DNA of 50,194 bases, counting the filler, from Bipalium vagum (lineage: Eukaryota), in assembly GCA_037834085.1 (NCBI GenBank). It is 2 parts of 2 records of this genome, joined end to end, with 100 filler letters (N's around TTAATTAATTAA, not from the genome) between each part and the next. Parts side by side here need not be neighbours in the genome. Positions count along the whole stretch, not along the records: positions 1 to 31,300 come from JBBMKC010254580.1; 1 more part is not named here. One strand, given 5' to 3'. The notes under the pieces are model-generated. The model was not told where the DNA came from. It ran no database searches and was given only the letters and a program-made list of their open reading frames with translations. Shown here in pieces: positions 11,185 to 43,350 of the stretch; the first letter of the stretch is position 1, and each line of letters starts with the position of its first letter. The position numbers and the translations under genes were made by a program.

Positions 11185-13120
11185 TTAGGTTGTCACATGA
11201 AATTTCCGTATTTTAGTTATCTTTTTTAGTGTTTTGTTTTTGAAAAAAATAGAATATAATAAAAGTTTTGATATATTAAATGTAAGACTTAAAATTTCTC
11301 TATAATACAATTATAACTGTTTATACTTTTTAGATTTTGTGATTTTCAAGAGCTAAAGTTAAGTAATGGTTAACTATGAATTTCGCGTCATTAATCTTCA
11401 AGTGAAAAAAGATGGTCATAATGCAACAGAGCACCACGAATTATCATAAAACCAATCGGAAGAGGTTCAGTTTCGGAAGGTACAACTTGTTACTGGTTCA
11501 AAAAAGTTCTGAAGGTGATATGAGTCTTGGAAATCATGATCGTGGTATACTAGAGTCTAAGATGTATGAGGATCAATTAAAGAAATTAATCAAATACGAG
11601 AATAATAAGTAGACAAGTTGCAGAAATGTTAAGCGTGAACGTAGCAAATGTTTCACATATCTGAAAACAATTTTAAAAAATGAACAAAATTGCTGCCTCA
11701 TGAACCTAATGAAATTCAAAAATTTCAGAGATATCAAATTTGTTTTTTAAAGGATTTATATGATAGTCGTAAAGGATCTGTGAAATGATTAAACAAAGAT
11801 GAATCATCGAAACAAGTACTAAAACCAAGTTTGCATCCAAAAAAGACAATGAATACAGTCTGGTGGTGCATCACAGGTTTAATTTATTATATAGTCAACG
11901 TCAAATTAATTAGCCACTTTATATTTAACTTTAAAAAATATGATAAATGATTCCTTAATGCTAAGGCGCCAAGATTTATAAAACTAATGTGAACTTAATT
12001 ATCATATATCGTATAAATATAATTTAAGTATTGCGTTGTTTATATGAATTAGTATACTTAATTAGTTTATACAACTTTTCAAATTAAAAATTTTGGTATT
12101 ACAACAGGACAATGCAAGTCCACACAAGTCAAAGTTGACAACAAAAATTTTGAAAGATATGAATATTCAAGTTTTAGAATGGCCTTCCCGGAGTCCTGAC
12201 ATGAGTTTAATAGAGTATATATTCAAGTCTCTTAAAGATTTGGTTTATGGAACAGAAGATTTCAAAACAAAGAATGAGTTATGGCTTGAAATTCAAAAAA
12301 ATGTTGCTTATATAAATGACAGGAAAAGTGACATGATTAAAGACTTGTATAATGGAATTTCGGATAGATTTATGAATGTTGTATTTCATCAAGGCAATAA
12401 TTAAATATATTTTTAATATTATTCATTTGTGTTAGTTTTTATATATTTATTTAACTAAAACATATTTGTCCAATAAATTTAACCAAAAATTTTAAACAAT
12501 ATTTTATGTAATTATTACATACAAGATAATATCACATATATGATTATTTTATTTGAGTATTAAATGTTTTAGTACAGTACAATGAAAACATACGATTACA
12601 ATTTACCAATTATTTTTGACATGGTTCGTCATTTTAATAATAAAAACGTCAAATTATAAAGTGTCCAATTAATTTGACGTTGACTATAGCTTCCTTAAAA
12701 GTGGTGAAACAATTAGAGTTGATATATATTGTAATGAAAAAGACAACATGTATGAAAGACTTACTCAAAAGATACCAGGACTTTTGAACAAAAATGGTTA
12801 AATTTTATTGCACGACAATTTCAGACCCCATACCACAAGAATAACATTGTAAATATTAAATCAGTTGCAATATGAACTCCTATCGTATCCACTTTATTCT
12901 CCGGACTTTTTCAAATACCTGGAATTATTTATCCGCCAAAAGAACTTAATTAAACAAGCATGCTTGAAAGGACTTCGATGTTTCATGGAATCCGGAGACG
13001 CATTGAGAACGTTTTATTGATTGAAATGGTGTATATTATGATTAAATAAATAAATTTTTTGACAGTTATTGCTTTTTGAAAATCAATATAAAACCGTCAA
13101 TTTCATGTGTAACAGCCTAA
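11185..13120 (+). mobile_element. Degenerate mariner interrupted by a nested Tc1-like element
   Basis: TIRs ttaggttgtcacatgaaatt and ttaggctgttacacatgaaatt, each with TA. Motifs CYWFKK, LPHEPNE and LHPKKTMNTVWWCITGLIYY|SFLKSGETI...ILLHDNFRPH, then YPLYSPD. Confidence 0.92.
11892..12686 (+). mobile_element. Non-autonomous Tc1-like (DD34E) element nested in the mariner
   Basis: 32-bp TIR tagtcaacgtcaaattaatt(agc/gga)cactttata, with TA duplications at 11890-91 and 12687-88. ORF 12093-12404 reads QQDNASPH...WPSRSPDMSLIE, with 34 residues between D and E. Confidence 0.95.
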
Positions 13121-20651: not shown

Positions 20652-21914
20652 TAGGGTAATCAGAAAAACTCGGACACACATTTTTAACTATAATTTTTTA
20701 ACCAAAAGAAATATAAGAAGAAAATAAGAAAAATAACAATAAATGAATCATTTTGAATTTATACATTCAATTGGTTTCGAAATGTCCACTCTTTTCGCAA
20801 ATACAGATTGCTAGAAGTTTTGTAAAATTTTCAGCAATTGGTCGCAGTTCTTTGGGCGAAAAACAGTCCCATTCTCGAGTCAGAGATTTTTTCAGTGCTT
20901 CCAAATTTTGGTAACGCTTTGCACATACTCTGCTCTCCAAAATATAATGTAGTCCATCGGGTTAAGATCCGAAGAGTATGGCGGCCATTCTTGAGACGTG
21001 ATAAAATCCGGAAAATTGGATTTGCACTAGTCCTGAGTCTTTTTGGCCTTATGGACTAGAGCGGACTCTTGTTGAAATATCCATTCTTCGTTTTTAAAAT
21101 GCTGTTTGAACCAAGGAAGTAATACAGATTTCAATATGTCCCGTCGATATACTTCTTGGTTGAATTTCACCCCCCTTATCCACGAAAATTAGAGGTGTTT
21201 TGCCACTCGTACAGACACCATCCCAGACCATGACAGATTCTGGATTTTGGCGATGTTCTATATTTTTGGAGTTTGCAGTAACTTTTGGTGACCATATGGG
21301 ATTGTTCGATGGTAAATAACTTCTCATATGAGAAAAGAGTTCGCTCCCAGCGCTGACCTGCAGCCCACAGTTTCAGTACCCGATATCTTTGGAGTCTTAC
21401 TCGTCTGTTTTCATCCGTTAAGAGTTGAACTTTTTGGAACTTATAAGTCCTGAGCTGCAGCTCGTTTTTTGCTATCATTCGATCAGATTCACGTTTGACC
21501 CCAGTCTCACGAGTGACTTTTCTCATGGATAGTCTGTGATTTCGTTTGATCCTCTTACTAATGATTTGGCGATTGGAAGAGATATTGATAGTCCGTTTCA
21601 TTCCACCTCCTGGATGCCGACCATTATGGCCAAGTTCTTTGAATCGCGAATGGCATCAGAGACTGTTTGTTTTGGGACATTCAACAATCGACTAATTTCA
21701 CTTTGACTTTTTCCGGAAAGAAAAATTCAAAAATTACCTCACATTTATTTCACATTTAAAAATTACACTAAATATGATCAATATTTAAGCAAAGAAAAAA
21801 TCATAATACTAACACGTGCCTAGATTTCAATAAACGAAAGTTATATTAATAAGACAAAAAAGTCTCTTTCAAGAACACAGCAAACATTTTGTCTGGTTTT
21901 TTTCTGATCACCAT
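20652..21914 (-). mobile_element. Full-length degenerate maT (DD37D, Bmmar1-like) transposon inserted in (TA)n
   Basis: TIRs agggtaatcagaaaaactcggaca and atggtgatcagaaaaaaaccagaca. Motifs SQSEISRLLNVPKQTVSDAI, LFSYEKLFTIEQ, SVMVWDGV and FQQESALVH...WPPYSSDLNPMD, with 37 residues between the last two catalytic positions. Confidence 0.93.
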
Positions 21915-22250: not shown

Positions 22251-22763
22251 TGATATCCATCCCGTCGTGGGGATAATTAATTTTAATTACTCCGAATTTC
22301 TCCCTAACTTTATTTCGGCGTGGAGATAGTGTTAATGGCTATTAGTGAAAATAGCCATCTCTAAGCTTCCAATCTCAACGACTATAAAAAGAGACAGCTA
22401 TTCCCAGAAATTAGCCCAGAGCGAGTTAAATTATATATCGCTGAACACTTACGGAGAAGTACGTCATAAAAATTATTGCGGAAGACTTAGGTGGAGGATC
22501 CATACCATACATTTCGAAGAAGTGCTATTGCCGGCGAAGTATTGTTGCAGATTTATTGTTTCCAGTAATTTTTTTTCTTTGATGATGACCAAGCAGCAAG
22601 ATTATACAAGGGGGCCCAGTGAGTTTGGAAATCCCTAGCTACCTGAAAAGGGCCTAGTGGACGACCGGGGACCCATTATCACTCCGGATGAGAGTATTAT
22701 TATATTTTTGTGTTTTTCTTGTTTTTTTGTTTTATAATACTTCATTAAAGTTCAACATTAACA
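22251..22763. mobile_element. Possible solo LTR or other GC-rich repeat island
   Basis: Sharp GC-rich island starting with TG, containing a TATA-like tataaaaag at about 22383 and attaaa near the end, finishing in CA. No target-site duplication found. Confidence 0.3.
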
Positions 22764-23137
22764 TTGATTTAGTGTATTTTGATTTTAGCAATATTGATTC
22801 GGAATTTTTATCATATACTGTGCGAACCTTTAATTAATTTGGTTATTAACTTTTCAGATATTTGATCTTCCTGCATATAGAACTGAACTGTGTTGTACAA
22901 CGTTGGAATTATTTTGAATAAAAATTTATTGTGATTGTTTTGATTCACTTAGGGTGCGAATAAAGTATTATTATTGGGAATTTCGATTCTATGGAGGTGT
23001 AAAGTTGTGCCACTTGATATTAAAACGAACATAACATCGTATAGTGACGAGTTGTTGATTAGCGAGCAAAAGTTACGGAGTAACATCTTTCATATATTTT
23101 TTTTCATATAATTTTTATATTTTATTTTAGATCTTAT

Positions 23138-23800: not shown

Positions 23801-24620
23801 GCAAAGGAATAGACTGTCATCAGTTTAATTTTGTTCTTTATTTTTGATACTATATTTTCTAAAAATCATTTTCCGACAGTTTCTTTCATCTGATAATTTC
23901 AATTTTAAAATTTTACAAATTAATTTTTATATATCTATAAAATTATTATAATTTATAGTAAAAAAAAATAATAATTTACATAATACATTTACATTTCTAT
24001 ATCATGAATATTACTTAAATTTTTGAAGGGTTGTATTGCTTACCAAATATTTTTAAAACGGATTTATAAAAATTAAGATGAAATGAATATTTCTACAGTT
24101 TTTACTTTTAGATTATTCTTAATTATTTTCATAATTTTAAGTCAGAATATCTGTGTCATGCATAAATTTTAAAATCGAAAATTTTCACTTCAAAAATTTA
24201 AGAATATAAGGTATTTTATTTAAACAGATTTACATTTACACTAGTTTCATTAAAAATATGAATTATTATTTTATTATTTTAAATAGTAAGAGCTTAGTAG
24301 CATTTTAATATTCATGTAATATACTATTAGTAACATTAATTAACAAAAAAGGAATCAAATTGAATAATCTTAAAACAAATATACAAATATATATAATTAG
24401 AAGAAATTTAAAGATTAATTTATAAATAACAGTTACCATTTTTAACACACGTTTAGTTAATAATTTAAGAAAATTTTAAAAAATGAAAAATGAAATTTTT
24501 TCATAAAATGAAATATTTCCTTAAAACTATATTTATTGTTAAAATAAATAAAAATTTTGTTAAAATGTTTAATATACGTAATATTTGTTTTAAAAAACAA
24601 TATTATATATTTATAAAGTT

Positions 24621-26347
24621 ATGGGCTCTTTTATTGAACAACTTATAAAATTATCTAATAAGCTTAGCTCTCCAGATATTCCTTTAGATAAAGTGATTTA
24701 ATTTTTAAATTAATAATATAATTTTATAATAAAATTTTAGAAATATAAAATTTTAGAAGCCATCACAGAACTTGACTTGTTAATTAGTGATATAAAGGCC
24801 TCGGGTCTTGGTAAAGCTGTAAAAAAATGTAGTAAAAATATAGGAAAACTTGGAACTTTGGCTTCACAAATTGTTGACGATTGGACGGAAATGGTTCTGG
24901 TCTCAACAGAAAATGAAGTTAATTCTGACAAATATGATAAGCAAACAGAAAATTATGAAAAAAAGCAAAAATTAAAAGATATTCCTGAAAAAACAAATAA
25001 AATTGCTAATAAAAATGTAAATAAAATGGAAAGTGATGTTGAAGATAATAGTGACTTAATAAATCAAGTTTCACAAAAGAGACATCAATCTCCAAATGAT
25101 TTTGATGAAGATTATAATTCAGAGGTTTCTGATAATTCAAAAATGGACAACATAAGATCATCAACTAAAGCACATTATGAGAATAACATAATTAAAAAAG
25201 AAAGATACAATGCGGAAACTTATGAAAAAACTAAAGAAATTTCGGAAGTAAAACACAAAAAGCGCATTTATGAAGACAATTCAAAATCTCAAGAAAATTT
25301 TCCTAACAGTCATACCACAAAATATTCTCATAATGTTGATCAGTCTTCGAAACCAAAGCAGTACTCAGAGACCATTATTCCAAAGTCCAGTCATAAAATC
25401 GAAGAAGTACGTCGACCAAAGCCAGATGCAATAAAAGCCAAGAGTAGGAAAACAGATAGTAACAATTTCACATTTGAAAATTTCCTCAAAGACAGTGCAA
25501 TGGCAAAGCCGTTGAAACAAGTCGATAAGAAGCGACATTCCGATGTCGTGAATAACGACAGAGAAGTAAAGAAAATAAAAATGAAATCGCCGGATGAATT
25601 CTCCAATTTTATTAGCAACAAAGTCTTGCCAGAATTGAGTCCGTCTGTGTCAGAAGATGATATAGATGAGCAATCGATTTATAATCGAAGTGATTTCCAG
25701 TACAAAAATCAATTGGTAAATAAGAATTCAAGCAAAAACCTGGAGCCCCAGGAGGACGTGGACTGTACGTCGAAGTACAGTTCAGAAAGAAAAATTTGGG
25801 TTCCCACCAGAAAGACAAGACAGGAAGACTTCGAAGAGGATGATGAAGACGTACTTATGATCAATGGCGTCCCGGAAACTGTGATAGCTCAATATGATTA
25901 CAAGAGGCTGATTGAGTTCGAAGACGGCGACCGAGTAAGCATGATTTGAGACTATCTTCATTTCATGTTAACCGTGTTTTGTATAGAAAATTATGCGTAA
26001 AACGGAATGCTTTTGGGAAAAACTGTTTTTCAAAATTCACAAATGTCATCGAAAAAGGGACGGTGAAAAGTGGCGAGAAGCGTTCTTGAGAGTACAGAAC
26101 GAGACTGATCAAAAGCTGAAAGAATTGTCGGCCCGAGTCAAGAGAAATAACGATGAGAAAACTTCCGGTTAGTGTTTTGAGAAGAAAACTTTTGAAGTGA
26201 AAACTGAATTAAAATTGATAAAATTGTCTTTTTGAGTAAAAGAAATTTAAGGTTAACGCTTTCTTTTTTTCAGCCATCAACAGAGCCAAATTTCTGAATT
26301 GCGTTCCCGGGAAAAACGGTCGACGAGTGATGCCTATGCACCGTTAG
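24621..26347 (+). CDS. ELOA: Elongin A (RNA polymerase II elongation factor subunit), 4 exons, 506 aa
   Basis: Exons 24621-24692, 24741-25934, 25987-26167 and 26274-26347, separated by GT-AG introns of 48, 52 and 106 nt, join in frame (1521 nt). N-terminal TFIIS-N/LW domain KILEAITELDLLISDIKASGLGKAV...LASQIVDDWTEMV; long charged linker; C-terminal Elongin A signature GVPETVI...TECFWEKL...EKWREAFLRVQNETDQKLKEL. Confidence 0.85.
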
Positions 26348-28370
26348 ATTGAAACGCGTGTTCAGTTGGAAGACATTTGTGGAAAAACTTGCTTTTATTC
26401 AAACATCTTTAATGATGATGATGAAATTATTAATTTCGCGAGATTTTTTTCTCTCTCTCTGCCTCGACATTGAATTTTTTGTGCTCTTGTACGCGCCCTG
26501 GGAGGGTTCTATATAACAGAGTTCACTTATTTTTTGAATGGTGTTAAATGTCACTTCTAATTTTGTTAAACTTGTGACGCGTAGGTAAATAAGTTTTAAC
26601 AGTTATGGCAGTTGACTATTCTCGCTAATTCGGACAATAGGCAGTAGCCGAACGATTTTTATATACTAAGATTCGTTTGTGCAATGTTATTTGTGAAAAT
26701 TTAATTGAGATAAATTAAAGTCAACTCTTGTCTTTCATTTTACGATTAATTGGGATAAAAAAATATTTAAAATTGATAATAAATCGGATTAAATTACTTA
26801 TCCCAATTGGTCCATATTTTTATGAAAAACACTTTATTTAAAAGTTTCATTTATTATTTGAAGATTTTAAAGCTATTTTTGTAAAAAGAAATTGGAAAGG
26901 GTGGACATTTCATTGTTTTCATGTATTTTTCGAAAATAAAATTTTATGAAAAATTGGCTCTAATGTTTGTTTATTTGAATCATTGTTATAATTTTAAGTA
27001 AATTTCCATATTTTAAATTTCTATTCATACGTAGTTATAAAAATGTGAAAGATAATTTTGGAAATATTTGGTCGTGATTTCTGGAATGGTTAGTAATCTA
27101 AGATTTTTAAAAATCAATTCTGGGGAGATTTAGGGAACCACTTTGTTAAATAAAAATTGATTTATAAATAATCATAAACAATTAAAATAAGTATTTGTAT
27201 AAACAATTCGAAGATTGAATGACTTATTTGGAGGTTTTTAATTTAAAAATCATTGTTATTTTTTAATGTTGTTTTTTATTTATAGATTAAGTAATTCTGT
27301 TATATTTTTATTTTGAGTAAACTTTTATTATTATTATTAGTAAAAATACAATTTTTATCTCTTAATATTTCAATGTTATTTAAATATAATACAGAATATT
27401 AAGTAACAGAAATTTCTCTATTTACTAACTTTAAAATCTATCCATAATTGATTTCGTTTATAAATATTTTTAATGAAATTTTGATTTTGTTTATTATTAA
27501 AATTCACAGATAATTATTTTTTTTATTGACATTATTTTTGATTTTTAAAAATTTTTTGTATACATATTTTTAATTTTAAATAATATACAAAAATCAAACA
27601 TTATTTAAGGGTCGAGGTGCATATCCTTTACTGCAGAATAAAATCTAGTATATAAAAAAAATTTTTTTTCGCAAGTTAAAGCAAAGGAAAATCGCTATTG
27701 GGCGAAATTAAATTAATGTGTTTATTGATTTGATTATTATATTATTCTTTAAAATTTTTAAATGAAGTACTTTTTAGTTGCATATATTAATATGAATACG
27801 ACCAATTTTTATTTTATGAGATAATTATCATTTCAGATTGAAATATAACTATAATACTATTTTTTTGGAAAAAACTTTGATTTTATTACATTAGTGATTA
27901 TTTTTTTAATATGAGAAATAAAATTCAAGTATTTTTAAATGTAATCTTTTTTAATTATTACACAATAGTTTGTTTATGTTTATAAATTGGGATTTAGGTA
28001 AATGCGAAAAGGAAGAATAATAGTAAATAATATTTTTCAAATCAAGGGATTATGAGATGTCACTTAAACTAATATAACATTCAATTATTGATTGGTTTTA
28101 TAAAGTATAGCAGTCATCTGTCGAAACCAGATTAATCCGGTTACTCGATAATTACAACTCATAAGGTCATAACCTCTCTTTTAATCTTGTCTATTATTAA
28201 TCCCATTTGATTTTCTCCATATTGTATTATGACATATCAGCTGTATAAAGATATACAATGCTTTCATAATACTAACAAATCCGTTATTTTTTGTGAATAA
28301 TTATTATTTCTCGAATTTTTATACGTCAATTAATTTATTTTTGTCGTTATTTTCAAAAAAATAATACTAT

Positions 28371-28480
28371 TAATAATTTAATTTAAAATAATAATAATTT
28401 AATTTGAAATAATAATAATTTAATTTAAAATAATAATAATTTAATTTAAAATAATAATAATTTAATTTAAAATAATAATT
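28371..28480. repeat. 21-bp AT-rich minisatellite, about 5 copies
   Basis: Unit ataataataatttaatttaaa repeated in tandem. Confidence 0.9.
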
Positions 28481-28717
28481 AATAATTATTTTAATTAATA
28501 ATTATAATAATTATTTTAATAACATTTTATAATAAAATTTTAATAATATAATAATTATATAACATTTTCAAGAATATCATTTTTGCCGAAGAAAAAGGAC
28601 CTCTTGTTAATGCTGGTGAGATCGTTTTATTTATTTATTTCTGTGTTTTTTCTGAAAACTTTCTTTCGTGATCATTTCTTTCATCTCTTTCATTATAGCA
28701 GTAGTTGTGTTTATTTA

Positions 28718-29193
28718 CCGGGTGTTCAAGTTAAAAGTTCATAAATAAAAGATTGTTCAAACTTCCTACAGGTAATGAATTCAAGAAAATTTTACATTTT
28801 CATAAAGATAAAAAATGCGGTTTTTTTAACTAAGTTGAATTACAAGATATGTTATATTTTATCAAAATAGTTACAAATATGATATGTACAATGTATGTAC
28901 AATGATATGTACAATCATTTTTTTTTTCGAAGTGACTACCTTCATTTTCTAAGCATGTTTCCAGCCTATGAGTGACATTTTTCACAACTTCTTGAAGGTT
29001 AATTTCTGTCACAATCTGTACAACTTGGATGATTCGTTTTTTCAGTATTTCACGATTATTTGGGCGATTGCCGCCTGGATAAACTTTTTTTTAAGAATAA
29101 CCATTATCAGAAATCCAGGTTTGTTAGATCAGGGTTTTGAGCAGGCCATTCGTAAGGAAATCCTCTTGAAATTATTTTTCCAGAACCGAAAGT
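28718..29193 (-). mobile_element. 3' fragment of the same rosa/DD41D-like family as 41658-43129
   Basis: TA plus ccgggtgttcaagttaaaagttcataaataaaag is the reverse complement of the 43096-43129 end. Encodes FGSGKIISRGFPYEWPAQNPDL and EVVKNVTHRLETCLENEGSHFE. Confidence 0.93.
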
Positions 29194-29199
29194 GAAAAT

Positions 29200-29516
29200 T
29201 AAATTTTGGCACAGATTTTTGGCTTGCTACAAATCCACCAGTCAAAGAATTTTTGAAATCCAGTGACATTAGGATTTTAGGTTGGCCAGCTAAACGTCCT
29301 AATCTGAAAATTGTAGAAGATATTTAGAAAAAAATTTCAGACCAGGTCTACGACGGTCCTCAATTTCAAAATTTCAATGAATTAATTACCAAACTGAAAC
29401 ATGTTGTAGACGACATTAATCAATCCCAACATACAAAAATTAAAATTTGGTTTAAATCTTACAGAAGGCGTTTATGTACAGTTTCATTAAAAAGAGGTTC
29501 CTCGTGGAACAAATAA
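29200..29516 (+). mobile_element. Tc1-like (DD34E) transposase C-terminal fragment
   Basis: EFLKSSDIRILGWPAKRPNLKIVEDI*KKISDQVYDGPQF, homologous to the 12093-12404 protein. Confidence 0.8.
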
Positions 29517-29799
29517 AATGTTCATGATAAATATTAAGTGTTTAAAAAATTATGATTTTTAAAAAATTTACATGTTTTCCCTTTTATTTTATTAACAGTA
29601 CATAACAAATATTGCACGGGGAAACATTATATTTGCAGCTTTTAAAACTACTTCTATCATGCAGACACAATTTGAAAAATTAAACAAAATAATACTTTTA
29701 TAATAATAAATTATGCTCTGTTGTAAAAATTATGACGAATAAAATATTTGCTATATAGATGAATATTTATTTTCTGGATAATTTAATATACGGATATAG

Positions 29800-30870
29800 A
29801 CAGACAAAAGTGTTCGGATTTTGGTTGGTTCTCCTTTTATGTTAACGAGTCCGTTTCTGATGAGTGGCGGAAGATAGTGGATTCTTTATTACAGAGAGAG
29901 TGATGAACGGGAGACCTAGTACCATGGTGGAAATACAGGAAAAAGTTCCGAGTGCTTATTGGATACTAGAGCCAGGTCAGCTTGATGAGTAGGAAAGTTA
30001 TGAGTAAGCTGAAAAATGTAGAAGTAGTGAAAAGTGACGATGCACAAACAATAGCCAACTGGAAATAGTGGGGGAATGCTCGGTTCTTGTGACAGTGGGA
30101 CAGTAATCGAAACTAGTGGACTTTACAGTAGTAGAGGAGGTCACACCTGATCTATTTGGCGGAATAAATCTCCAAATTGTTTTGGTTTTAGATTATTTAA
30201 AGGAAATCTCTCACAAAGCAATAAGGAAGAGAGTAAAAGAAGAAACACATATGTGCAACATTGCGGGGATGTTCGGTTCTGAAGTCAAGGAGGGAGAGCG
30301 TTTTAGACGGACAATAGAACTAACAAGAGTGGCAAGCAACGGGCGACTTGTGCAGATAATTAAAGAGAACGAGGATGTTTATATGTCAAACAAATGGGAT
30401 ATCGGCAAAACATCACATTCGGACAACAGGAGAACCGATCAACCTTAAGCCGTTTAGACAATCGATGAACTTGAAAGAAAAGGTTCAAGACATTATCAAG
30501 AACCTATACGATAATGGGATTATTAAAAATGCAAATGGAATACACCATTGATTTGTGTGTGGAAAAGAAGAAAAAAATCAGTTTATGTTTAGATTTTCGA
30601 CGGTTAAGCGCAGTAACAGAAAGACAGGCTTTCCTGATGCCGAATGTTGAAAAAATGTTAGACTCCTTGGGCGGGCAAAATATTTTAGTTTAATTGATCT
30701 AGATAATGCTTACTATCAGGTGGAACTGGAAGAGGCGTCAAAGATTAAGATTGCTTTATTTACCAAGGAAAGACAATATTGCTTCAATAGGATACCCTCT
30801 GGAATAGCTGCAGCCCCTGGGACCTTTCAGGGGATAATTTCAAAGGTCGTCGGAAAAATAAAAGAAGCAA
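29800..30870 (+). mobile_element. Ty3/gypsy LTR-retrotransposon pol fragment (protease and N-terminal RT), pseudogenised
   Basis: Protease LLDTRA (from LxDTGA). RT motifs LCLDFRRLSAVTERQAFLMPNVEKML and IDLDNAYYQVELEEASKIKIALFTKERQYCFNRIPSGIAAAPGTFQ. Truncated before YxDD. Confidence 0.93.
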
Positions 30871-31300
30871 GGGCACAATCCCGTGCAAAAGTATTAAAAG
30901 AGATGATTTTTAACCATAAAATGCATTAAAAACAAAATTTTACATGATTAGATATGGTAAATGTTCTTGAAATACAATATTTCCATTAAATATGATGAGT
31001 TACAGATACTACAAAGTTTTAATTAATTTATTAATTTTTATAATAAATGAGCTATATTATGACAATATTGCACATGTTAAAATTATCACTTTAAATTCAT
31101 GATATTATTTATTTCTGTAATAAAGTATATTTATTTTTGTTTTTTCGTTGCTTTCAGTTTGTATTATTTAAAAAATCTGCCAATAAAAGCTAAGTAATAT
31201 TTTTCAATAGGTAAAACATGTAAGTGTTTTGGTTCGACGCTTACTGCGAGATCTAATCTCGAAAATATAAAAATGCTAACTCTATTAATATAGGTTAGAA

Positions 31301-39663: not shown

Positions 39664-40906
39664 TTTGGTAACAAATAAAGTTCGTGCGGTTTTAGCTCAA
39701 AAAATGCAAAGATTTATTAGAAAACACAAATACAATATTAATCATCGAAATAATCACCGCCACACTTTATAATATTCTGCCAACGTGTCACTAAATGTTG
39801 TATGCCGGTTTTGTAAAAATCTTTCGATTTGGAATCGAAAAAACTGCGGACCGCATCAACAACACCATCTCGAGTTTGGAATTGCCGCTGCCTCATAAAA
39901 TTGTCCAGAGATATGAAAAGATGGTAAACACTTGGGGAAATATCTGGAAAATAAGGTGGATGTGGTAATGTTTCCCAGCCAAGCTCAGAAATTTTTTCAT
40001 GGGTTAATCTTGCGATATCTTGTAAGAAGAGCACATTCTTTCGATTGATCAAAGAAGGTTTTTTCTGGATAAGTGCTTCTTTTCACTCGCTCAAGCTGAA
40101 CACAATAGACTGCAGAAGTGATGATTTGACCACTTTCCAAGAATTCATAATGAATAATTCTGGTTGCTGTCCCCCAAACACACAATAAAATCTTTTTTGG
40201 GTGTACGGGGTTCTTTGGAGTATGTTGGAGATGTTGAGGATAACCAATGACGAGATAGCTTATTATAGCTGAATAATAGCCATTTTTTGTCGCAGGTTAA
40301 TAATCGATCGAGAAAAAAACTCTTTTTTATATATTGATAAATTTGCTGAACAAATGGATAAGCGGCTTATTTTCTTGGATTCTGACAAATCATGTGGAAC
40401 CCATTTGCTTAATTTCTACTTCTTCCCCAGCTGGTGAAGGTGAACCCGAATTGTTTCATCGCTCACATTTAAATTTTTTGCAAGCTCTTAGAACGTTAAA
40501 CTGAAATTTGCATCAATCAATTCTTTGAGATTGTTGTTATCAATGACCGTTGGTCTTCCAGAACGTGCTTCATCGGTTAGGCTGAAATCCCCCAATGAAA
40601 ATTTTTGAAACCACTTACAGCATCATCTCCAAACGCCCTACATATTTTTCGCGCAGCTTCGGCAGCTTTCGTGCCAAATTTGTATTCATAGAGTAAACTA
40701 CTTCGAATTAGCGCTTTTTAGGAGGCCATTTTGACTAAGTAATTGAACTTTTTAAACAATCTTTTCTAAATTTTTTAAAAAATCAATAGAAAGAAAAAAT
40801 ATTACCTAACCGACATAAAACAATATAAATAATTCCTATCAATAAGTATCAATCAAATCTATCATAATAGGCGGTATTAAGAAACCGCACGAACTTTATT
40901 GGTTAT
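39664..40906 (-). mobile_element. Full-length degenerate mariner (pseudo-ORF 40729 to 39738)
   Basis: TIR core aataaagttcgtgcggttt at both ends. Motifs IRSSLLYEYKFGTKAAEAA, KWVPHDLS, LCVWGTA, HPPYFPDISPSVYHLF and C-terminus GGDYFDD*. Confidence 0.95.
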
Positions 40907-41589: not shown

Positions 41590-43350
41590 AGCTCCAAACA
41601 ACCGATAGCAAGGTCTTATTATTTGTTGATAATTGCAGTCATCATTCAACCATTATACCGGGTGTTCAAGTTAAAAGTTTATAAATAAAAGCGTAATATT
41701 TTTTATGCTGTAAAGTTTTATTTAATTTATTTGATCGAATAACCTTTATTGTGGATTTGGTAAATCCTGCTTTATATATAAACTTATGTTGTTTAAATGC
41801 ATAAATAATGACAAAAAATAAATGTACTTGTTTAAAATTTTGTTTTATTTTTAGATATGCCTTACATATTATCAAAATCGGATAAAATTAGGCTGGTAGA
41901 GCTATTTTTTAAAACTGAGAGTTTCGCTGAAACTCAGAGAAAATTTTCAACCGTAAAAAAAATAAAACGAAAGAGTGACAGGCCTTCAGTACAGCAAATA
42001 AGAAAAATTATTTTTAAATTCCACCAAACTGGTTGCATTAATAAAGATCACAATGTGCGATCTCCTAGAGCTTAGAAGAGAAATGAAAGGATATTGATAC
42101 TGTTTTACACCAGGTAAAAGCAGAGGGAACATCTACGAGCATAAGGAAACTCAGTTGTTTCAGATTCCTCTATTGGATTAGTTCACACGTATCTCAGACG
42201 TGAATTGAAATTATTTCCCTATAAAGTCACAATTGGGCAGTTTCTCTCAGACAAACATATGGCAAATCGTTATGCCTTTTGCAAAAGGATGCTATAAAAT
42301 ATATCCAAGGATGATACATTTTTATCCCGAATTGTATGGAGTGATGAATACTCATTCAATCTCAATGGATGGATGAACAGACAAAATATTCGATTTTGGG
42401 GGATGCAAAACCCCAATAACTTGGTTGAATACTCAACATTCTCGGCAAAGGTCAACGTATTCATTGCGATGTGGTCTTCCTTTCTTATTGGATAATGGCA
42501 ATAGTCAGACTATAAATTCGGAACGATATTTGGATATGCTTATTCACTATCTTATTCCGGAGTCTCAAATCAATTCCGAGATTTAACCGTTTAATTTTCC
42601 AACAAGATGGTGCTGCTCCTCCATATTGCCAAACAAGCAAGAGTATTCTTGGAAAACACTTTCGGTTCTGGAAAAATAATTTCAAGAGGATTTCCTAACG
42701 AATGGCCTGCCCAAAGCCCTGATCTAACACCCCTGGATTTCTGGTTATGGTCATTCTTGAAAGAAAAAGTTTATCCAGGTTGCAATCGCCTTAATAGTCG
42801 TGAAATATTGAAAGAACGTATCATCCAAGCTGTACAGATTTTGACAGAAATATACCTTCAAGAAGCCGTGGAAAATGTCACTCATAGGCTGGACGTATGC
42901 CTAGAAAATGAGGGTGGACACTTCGAATAAAAATATGATTTATGTACATATGTACATATCATATTTTTAACTATTTTGATAAAATACAACATATCTTGTA
43001 ATTCAACTTAGTTAAAAAAATAAAACCGCATTTTTGATCTTTATGAAAAATGTAAAATTTTCATGAATTCATTACCTGTAGGAAGTTTGAACAATCTTTT
43101 ATTTATGAACTTTTAACTTGAACACCCGGTACAATTGAGGAATATATAATTGTGCTTTTTATACCAAATACTACTGTTGAAGCACAGCCAATGGATCACG
43201 GAGTAGTTAAAAATTTGAAAGTACATTATAGGCGACTATTAGGGAATAAATCAACTCAATGGTTACTGGTAGCTCATTTAATTTTTATCTTTTCGATGCA
43301 CTGCATCTTATTCGTGAAGCATGGAATGATGTTACCACAGAAACAATAGG
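41590..43350 (+). mobile_element. pogo/Tigger (DDE_1) transposase remnant split by a later insertion
   Basis: Left flank KVLLFVDNCSHHSTI; right flank QLRNI*LCFL..PNTTVEAQPMDHGVVKNLKVHYRRLL. Confidence 0.85.
41658..43129 (+). mobile_element. Full-length rosa/DD41D-like transposon (apparent DD42D), pseudogenised
   Basis: 34-bp TIR ccgggtgttcaagttaaaagtt(t/c)ataaataaaag with 1 mismatch; TA duplications at 41656-57 and 43130-31. ORF pieces across 41857-42930: DUF4817-like HTH, IVWSDEYSFNLNGWMNRQNIRFWG, FQQDGA, WPAQSPDLTPLDFWLW and GGHFE*. Confidence 0.95.

Follow-up and report, generated by a model that had tools for sequence, protein, structure and literature searches.

Elongin A paralogues without a BC-box in the genome assembly of Bipalium vagum

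The window analysed here is a stretch of 50,194 nucleotides, filler included, joined from two records of the Bipalium vagum assembly GCA_037834085.1, of which JBBMKC010254580.1 supplies positions 1 to 31,300. On its plus strand lies a predicted gene of the Elongin A (ELOA) type, encoding 506 amino acids in four exons (24621-24692, 24741-25934, 25987-26167 and 26274-26347) separated by introns of 48, 52 and 106 nt, each bounded by GT-AG. Exon 1 (24621..24692) opens with an ATG and runs for 24 codons to the 48-nt phase-0 intron; the first intron falls at codon 24 in the paralogue on contig C17044 and at codon 23 in that on C154732. Exon 2 (24741..25934) is a single open frame of 1194 nt that holds the TFIIS-N domain, a disordered middle, the latch, a linker and the start of the Elongin A domain, and a genomic prediction from a relative, P0130, enters an intron at the same place as the end of this exon. 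Exon 3 (25987..26167) encodes the Elongin A domain, including helix alpha5 and the two conserved tryptophans, and its length of 181 nt and its phases (0/1) recur in the C17044 and C154732 paralogues. Exon 4 (26274..26347) encodes the C-terminal linker INRAKFL (26276-26296) and the stop codon. In P0122, a relative from another assembly whose exon 3 region is 67% identical, the sequence continues across the second and third junctions, again with no BC-box; P0122 is most simply a transcript-derived prediction. Given the intact frame and a pN far below pS, the window gene is likely an intact Elongin A paralogue and not a decaying pseudogene. An interspersed repeat lies upstream of it at 22597-23052, with 68-76% similarity to its copies on C242720 and C154732, and fragments that we take to be Tc1/mariner transposase-like and retroelement reverse transcriptase-like occur at 21094-21655, 12066-12404, 39738-40082, 42595-42930 and 30107-30929.

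The N-terminal TFIIS-N (TND/LW) domain expected of ELOA/TCEB3 is found at 24756..24896 (plus strand; PF08711, E=3.4e-6, 27.2 bits against a cut-off of 20.6), and the C-terminal Elongin A domain is present by profile and by fold. The Pfam family of the latter, PF06881, stays below its cut-off in exon 3 (E=0.015); of the 9 clade proteins or exons scanned, 8 fall short in the same way and only P0125 passes. Profile-profile comparison (hhalign) with canonical ELOA gives E=1.5e-12, and human ELOA takes the top two of seven places in a PDB sequence search with the family profile (E=0.0023). Run against 1.84 billion representative proteins, the family profile finds 28 at E<=0.001; among the 24 of these that were read, the named ones and the 15 scanned with Pfam are all ELOA-domain proteins. 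Fold searches with AlphaFold models of two relatives, in which every E-value exceeds 0.001, place the Pol II-bound ELOA chains 8of0_M and 8oev_M first and second of 36 for P0122 (E 0.018 and 0.05), and for P0001 the human ELOA TND second (rmsd 1.0) and 8of0_M fourth (rmsd 1.3). The preliminary description had recognised an Elongin A with TFIIS-N and Elongin A signatures, and that identification holds. Another TFIIS-N family (TFIIS, IWS1, MED26) was considered and rejected, since the C-terminal Pfam families of these proteins are absent from exons 2 and 3 and the C-terminal part matches ELOA. The window protein is homologous to Elongin A by descent without being a canonical Elongin subunit.

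What the protein lacks is the BC-box. Its consensus, given as (S,T,P)LxxxC/S/AxxxPhi in PMC3355856, has no match in the three plus-strand frames of 24000-31300. A 12-column BC-box profile, built from 11 SOCS boxes of the assembly and seven canonical ELOA boxes, reaches a best score in the window protein that 81 of 500 shuffles also reach, against 1 of 500 for the box-bearing paralogue, and all 13 box-less proteins fail likewise (81-347 of 500 shuffles). The peptide ERKIWVPTRKTRQEDFEEDDEDVLMINGVPETVIAQY, encoded at 25786-25896 on the plus strand, lies within the 1194-nt exon 2, as the preliminary description had it, so that no exon can be spliced between latch and GVP. No alternative exon restoring the box turned up in the pattern search over 24000-31300, nor in four protein-based searches and one family-based search of the assembly. 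The reported absence of the box is thereby borne out. Also absent is the arrangement of SOCS-box CRL5 receptors, a BC-box and then a Cul5-box (LP-Phi-P), and the window contig is not among the 18 matches to PF07525.

The spacing of the protein shows the form that the loss has taken. The latch aromatic and the GVP proline lie 25 residues apart, as against 35-38 in six canonical proteins (36 in human); between that proline and the first tryptophan the distance is 30, as against 34 in canonical proteins, human included. The second difference is a four-residue deletion after GVP, in the cullin-box helix, common to all nine of the nine clade members having that region; the erosion of the Cul5-box that had been proposed is therefore real and consists of this deletion. 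At the site expected of the BC-box helix stands a variable linker (25806..25853, plus strand), 19% identical over 16 codons to C17044, with pN 0.61 and pS 0.58. It has eight acidic residues in the window protein as against one, three and four in close relatives, and across ten box-less proteins the linkers span 18-32 residues with 1-9 acidic. The earlier claim that an acidic tract replaced the BC-box must accordingly be given up, since the acidity is unconserved: the box was deleted, a freely drifting linker lies in its place, and the acidity is incidental. An acidic tract acting as a functional substitute is ruled out on the same ground. The linker is followed by LMINGVP (25854..25874, plus strand), predicted to fold into a beta-hairpin that caps the Elongin A domain. 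The AlphaFold models of P0001 and P0122, relatives and not the window protein itself, have coil and two short strands at GVP where the BC-box helix is expected (block pLDDT 95 in P0122), and the predicted hairpin would thus take the place of helix alpha1 and cap the domain.

The loss is not confined to one locus. Own-genome searches find six ELOA loci in the assembly, five box-less and one, C154732, with a consensus BC-box. The window gene and C17044 are of a long, four-exon type; C195953, C250333 and C262436 are of a short type, the first intronless and the other two cut by contig ends. Further candidate loci were set aside (C95010 is a RING protein, C229161 noise, and C270816 and C197870 unrelated). 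The same BC-box loss recurs in four other loci of the assembly and in five proteins from other assemblies. Nine box-less proteins, five from the assembly and four from Logan and ENA records, group together in a single clade with support of 98/95 when the trait columns are removed; P0130 and P0136, which have no anchor, were left out. Throughout the clade the residues ahead of GVP stay hydrophobic, and the six closest outside relatives are all without the box or without the region concerned. Seven other ELOA-domain proteins have no BC-box, three of them from Steinernema species, while the other four may be mispredicted. A single origin for all sixteen box-less proteins is rejected by tree test (AU p=0.0046). 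The Steinernema proteins (KAK0429296.1, TKR72837.1 and UniRef A0A1I8AFD9) resemble the clade in having a latch-like motif and an Elongin A domain without a BC-box, but they have no TFIIS-N match and no four-residue deletion (proline to tryptophan 34); the tree test does not reject a common origin of these proteins and the clade (AU p=0.185), against which the indel speaks. The BC-box loss seen in these Elongin A duplicates is real, conserved and repeated. Word-index searches for homologues returned none of 60 candidates and, among 6618, only two, both already in the set; metagenome scans found no relative among 167 stretches or among 493. Unannotated ELOA-domain proteins without a box and apparently of separate origin were seen in Steinernema (P0140, P0131, P0141, P0150) and as P0132, P0137, P0138 and P0147.

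The elements that face Pol II have fared differently. The latch-equivalent block DCTSKYSSERKIW (25761..25799, plus strand) is 89% identical over 18 codons to C17044 (pN 0.10, pS 0.65) and is the best conserved part between the two paralogues, and the Elongin A domain is 68% identical (pN 0.18, pS 0.89). By ungapped count the latch has Lys at human R555 and Glu at human K559. Helix alpha5, the predicted contact with the RPB2 external-2 site (26071..26166, plus strand), reads K/L/L at human R666, L667 and L670, the residues reported to contact RPB2 (PMC10716050), and these positions hold K or H, L, and L or I in nine of nine clade members. Purifying selection acts on the latch block and on the Elongin A domain, helix alpha5 included.

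On balance we favour the reading that the box-less paralogue is an Elongin-BC-independent Pol II factor and its box-bearing sister the adaptor of an ELOB/ELOC-CUL5-RBX2 ligase. The first part had been proposed beforehand and is kept as the best reading, and a likely one, the box being deleted and the Pol II contact residues retained. With the docking site lost here and kept in the sister gene, the two jobs of Elongin A are likely split between copies. If the human structure is a guide, RPB2 would be bound by helix alpha5 together with the C-terminal linker, while a flexible tether of about 19 residues would let the latch reach the bridge helix and stimulate elongation without ELOC. Pol II would not be exposed to CUL5 ubiquitylation by the box-less protein, and the box-bearing C154732 protein would serve as ligase adaptor. 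The preliminary description further held that full elongation activity requires both boxes, which is overstated: ELOA alone is reported to stimulate elongation in vitro, and what stands is that ELOB-ELOC adds to the effect (PMC10716050).

Stimulation itself might nonetheless be missing. The protein could bind Pol II as a TFIIS-N scaffold, or compete with PAF1, SEC or TFIIF for the RPB2 external-2 site, an alternative that we consider unlikely: with Glu at the K559 position, which varies across the clade, the latch may act otherwise than in human, the ELOC anchor is gone, human latch-less variants are described as binding Pol II with no stimulation, and Elongin on Pol II as excluding PAF and SEC (PMC10716050). 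Against it stands the conservation of the latch, which exceeds that of every other part of the two paralogues, together with the basic residue at R555, kept in the window gene and in the four other loci of the assembly read at that position. The K559 position, moreover, varies in canonical nematode proteins too.

For the ligase half of the favoured split, the partners are at hand. ELOC (86-92% identical to its top matches, the best named one from Schistosoma), ELOB (E=1.6e-28, picked from the 20 examined of 57 weaker ubiquitin-family matches), CUL5 (E=3.9e-32) and RBX2 (E=3.6e-35) are all present, which rules out their loss, and 11 of 18 SOCS-box matches exceed the cut-off, although three of those 11 lie on contigs shorter than 430 bp and may be foreign. 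The C154732 gene has five exons in an intact frame, a TFIIS-N domain, introns of 49-50 nt and three intron positions shared with the window gene. Its BC-box, SLLKICQDVL, stands at canonical spacing (39 from latch aromatic to proline and 34 from proline to tryptophan) and scores 15.1 on the 12-column profile, within the leave-one-out range of 2.5-19.4; a 22-column ungapped profile puts the best site elsewhere in the protein. The BC-box exon has no Pfam match, the acceptor of exon 3 is ambiguous, and the protein forms a long branch of unsure position in the tree. Its alpha5 reads K/F/S at R666/L667/L670, a hint of weaker Pol II binding. Database and metagenome searches found no C154732 orthologue outside the assembly. 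That the Elongin-Cul5 ligase had been lost in the lineage, as was suggested earlier, finds no support now that this box stands alongside ELOC, ELOB, CUL5 and RBX2, and a lineage-wide loss is unlikely. Other ubiquitin-related genes were also observed: expanded RING genes in long single frames (e.g. C95010:865-2400; 22 of 52 PF12678 matches lie in frames of 498-591 amino acids), a 1024-amino-acid open frame with nine diverged ubiquitin-like matches (C117024:2211-5264), and four separate short ubiquitin-like genes on C249493.

The composition of the assembly bears on how this paralogue is read. At least four distinct COX1 sequences (C253947, C246471, C253320 and C4371) are 72-79% alike, two of them with a flatworm-type code and two like other invertebrates; the best-scoring one reads AAA as Asn at five of five sites, which presumably marks a flatworm or echinoderm code; the window gene itself likely comes from a flatworm. 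By these sequences the assembly holds more than one animal, a point that touches other findings from this genome, and C154732 could come from a second animal. Diverged pairs exist for CUL3, CUL4, UBL5 and one SOCS-box gene (pS 0.37-0.87, CUL3 at 0.87), with ELOC, CUL5 and RBX2 found once; given these pairs and the COX1 mixture, the count of ELOA paralogues may sum two animals or reflect an old duplication. Tetranucleotide profiles did not separate the contigs (r 0.14-0.71). The mixture and the diverged pairs lend something to the idea that the Elongin A-CUL5 ligase is wholly lost in this lineage and the box-bearing gene foreign or no longer functional, as do the box-less or truncated state of the six outside relatives and the strong divergence of C154732, with its GC3 of 0.46 against 0.23-0.35. 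We hold this to be improbable: the frame is intact, with short introns at shared positions; the gene lies on a 26-kb AT-rich contig that has an 86-bp repeat (91%) and two weaker ones, one of them of 117 bp at 76%, in common with the window contig, which favours, short of proof, one genome for both; the WVP motif of the long box-less type is found in C154732 as well; and one CUL3 copy has a GC3 of 0.52.

Two further explanations fare worse. ELOC might still be bound by some other, non-canonical surface, for instance the hydrophobic LMI hairpin, as the high conservation of ELOC in the assembly and the retained residues before GVP could suggest, but ELOC contacts the BC-box helix over about 960 A2, the relatives' models show coil and hairpin there, the linker drifts neutrally and other adaptors of the genome have ordinary BC-boxes, which makes such binding very improbable. 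That the loss is an assembly or gene-model artefact or a decaying pseudogene is hardly credible even in an assembly fragmented into 272,664 contigs, because it is repeated in the other loci and assemblies and the frame is intact under constraint.

Comparison with known systems returns to the favoured reading of a BC-independent Pol II factor. The window protein resembles human Elongin A (ELOA/TCEB3; 8OF0 and 8OEV, chain M), as described in PMC10716050, in its TFIIS-N domain, disordered middle, latch position, Elongin A fold, alpha5 contacts and C-terminal linker, and differs from it, besides the missing BC-box helix and the deletion after GVP, in its predicted beta-hairpin cap, the Glu at K559 and a short C-terminal tail. 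Primate ELOA3 is the nearest precedent, a functional one: like the window protein it is an ELOA duplicate, it is found in Pol II complexes, purifying with Pol II while ELOB/ELOC stay near background, and its activity is reportedly not stimulated by ELOB/ELOC (PMC10664989). The same source reports an ELOB/ELOC interaction of ELOA3 in vitro, whereas the box of the window protein is physically deleted; and, unlike ELOA3, the window protein belongs to a clade that spans several species and includes both intron-bearing and intronless types. The latch of RTF1 is likewise reported to stimulate Pol II without Elongin BC (PMC10716050), but the protein is unrelated and serves as an analogy only. Literature searches, to which PMC8294581 and PMC7948453 contributed background, turned up no account of a BC-box-less or flatworm Elongin A in the freely available papers covered, although gene tables could hide a mention.

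According to PMC10664989, it is unsettled which role of ELOA prevails in cells, that of elongation factor or that of ubiquitin ligase subunit. Natural paralogues separating both functions would allow one copy at a time to be knocked down in a flatworm, and the box-less protein would offer biochemists a single-chain Elongin A with which to ask whether the latch works without ELOB/ELOC. For annotation, Pfam-based assignment of ELOA misses or mislabels box-less proteins. A more far-reaching and rather doubtful possibility is that in a flatworm lineage the copies have become reciprocal specialists: an expanded clade of stand-alone, box-less Pol II activators with a self-capping beta-hairpin for the BC-box helix, unable to ubiquitylate Pol II, and a ligase-only adaptor with a degraded Pol II helix (L670 to Ser). 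With loss of the BC-box recurring in other animals, the BC-independent Elongin A would then be a repeated and undescribed evolutionary solution.
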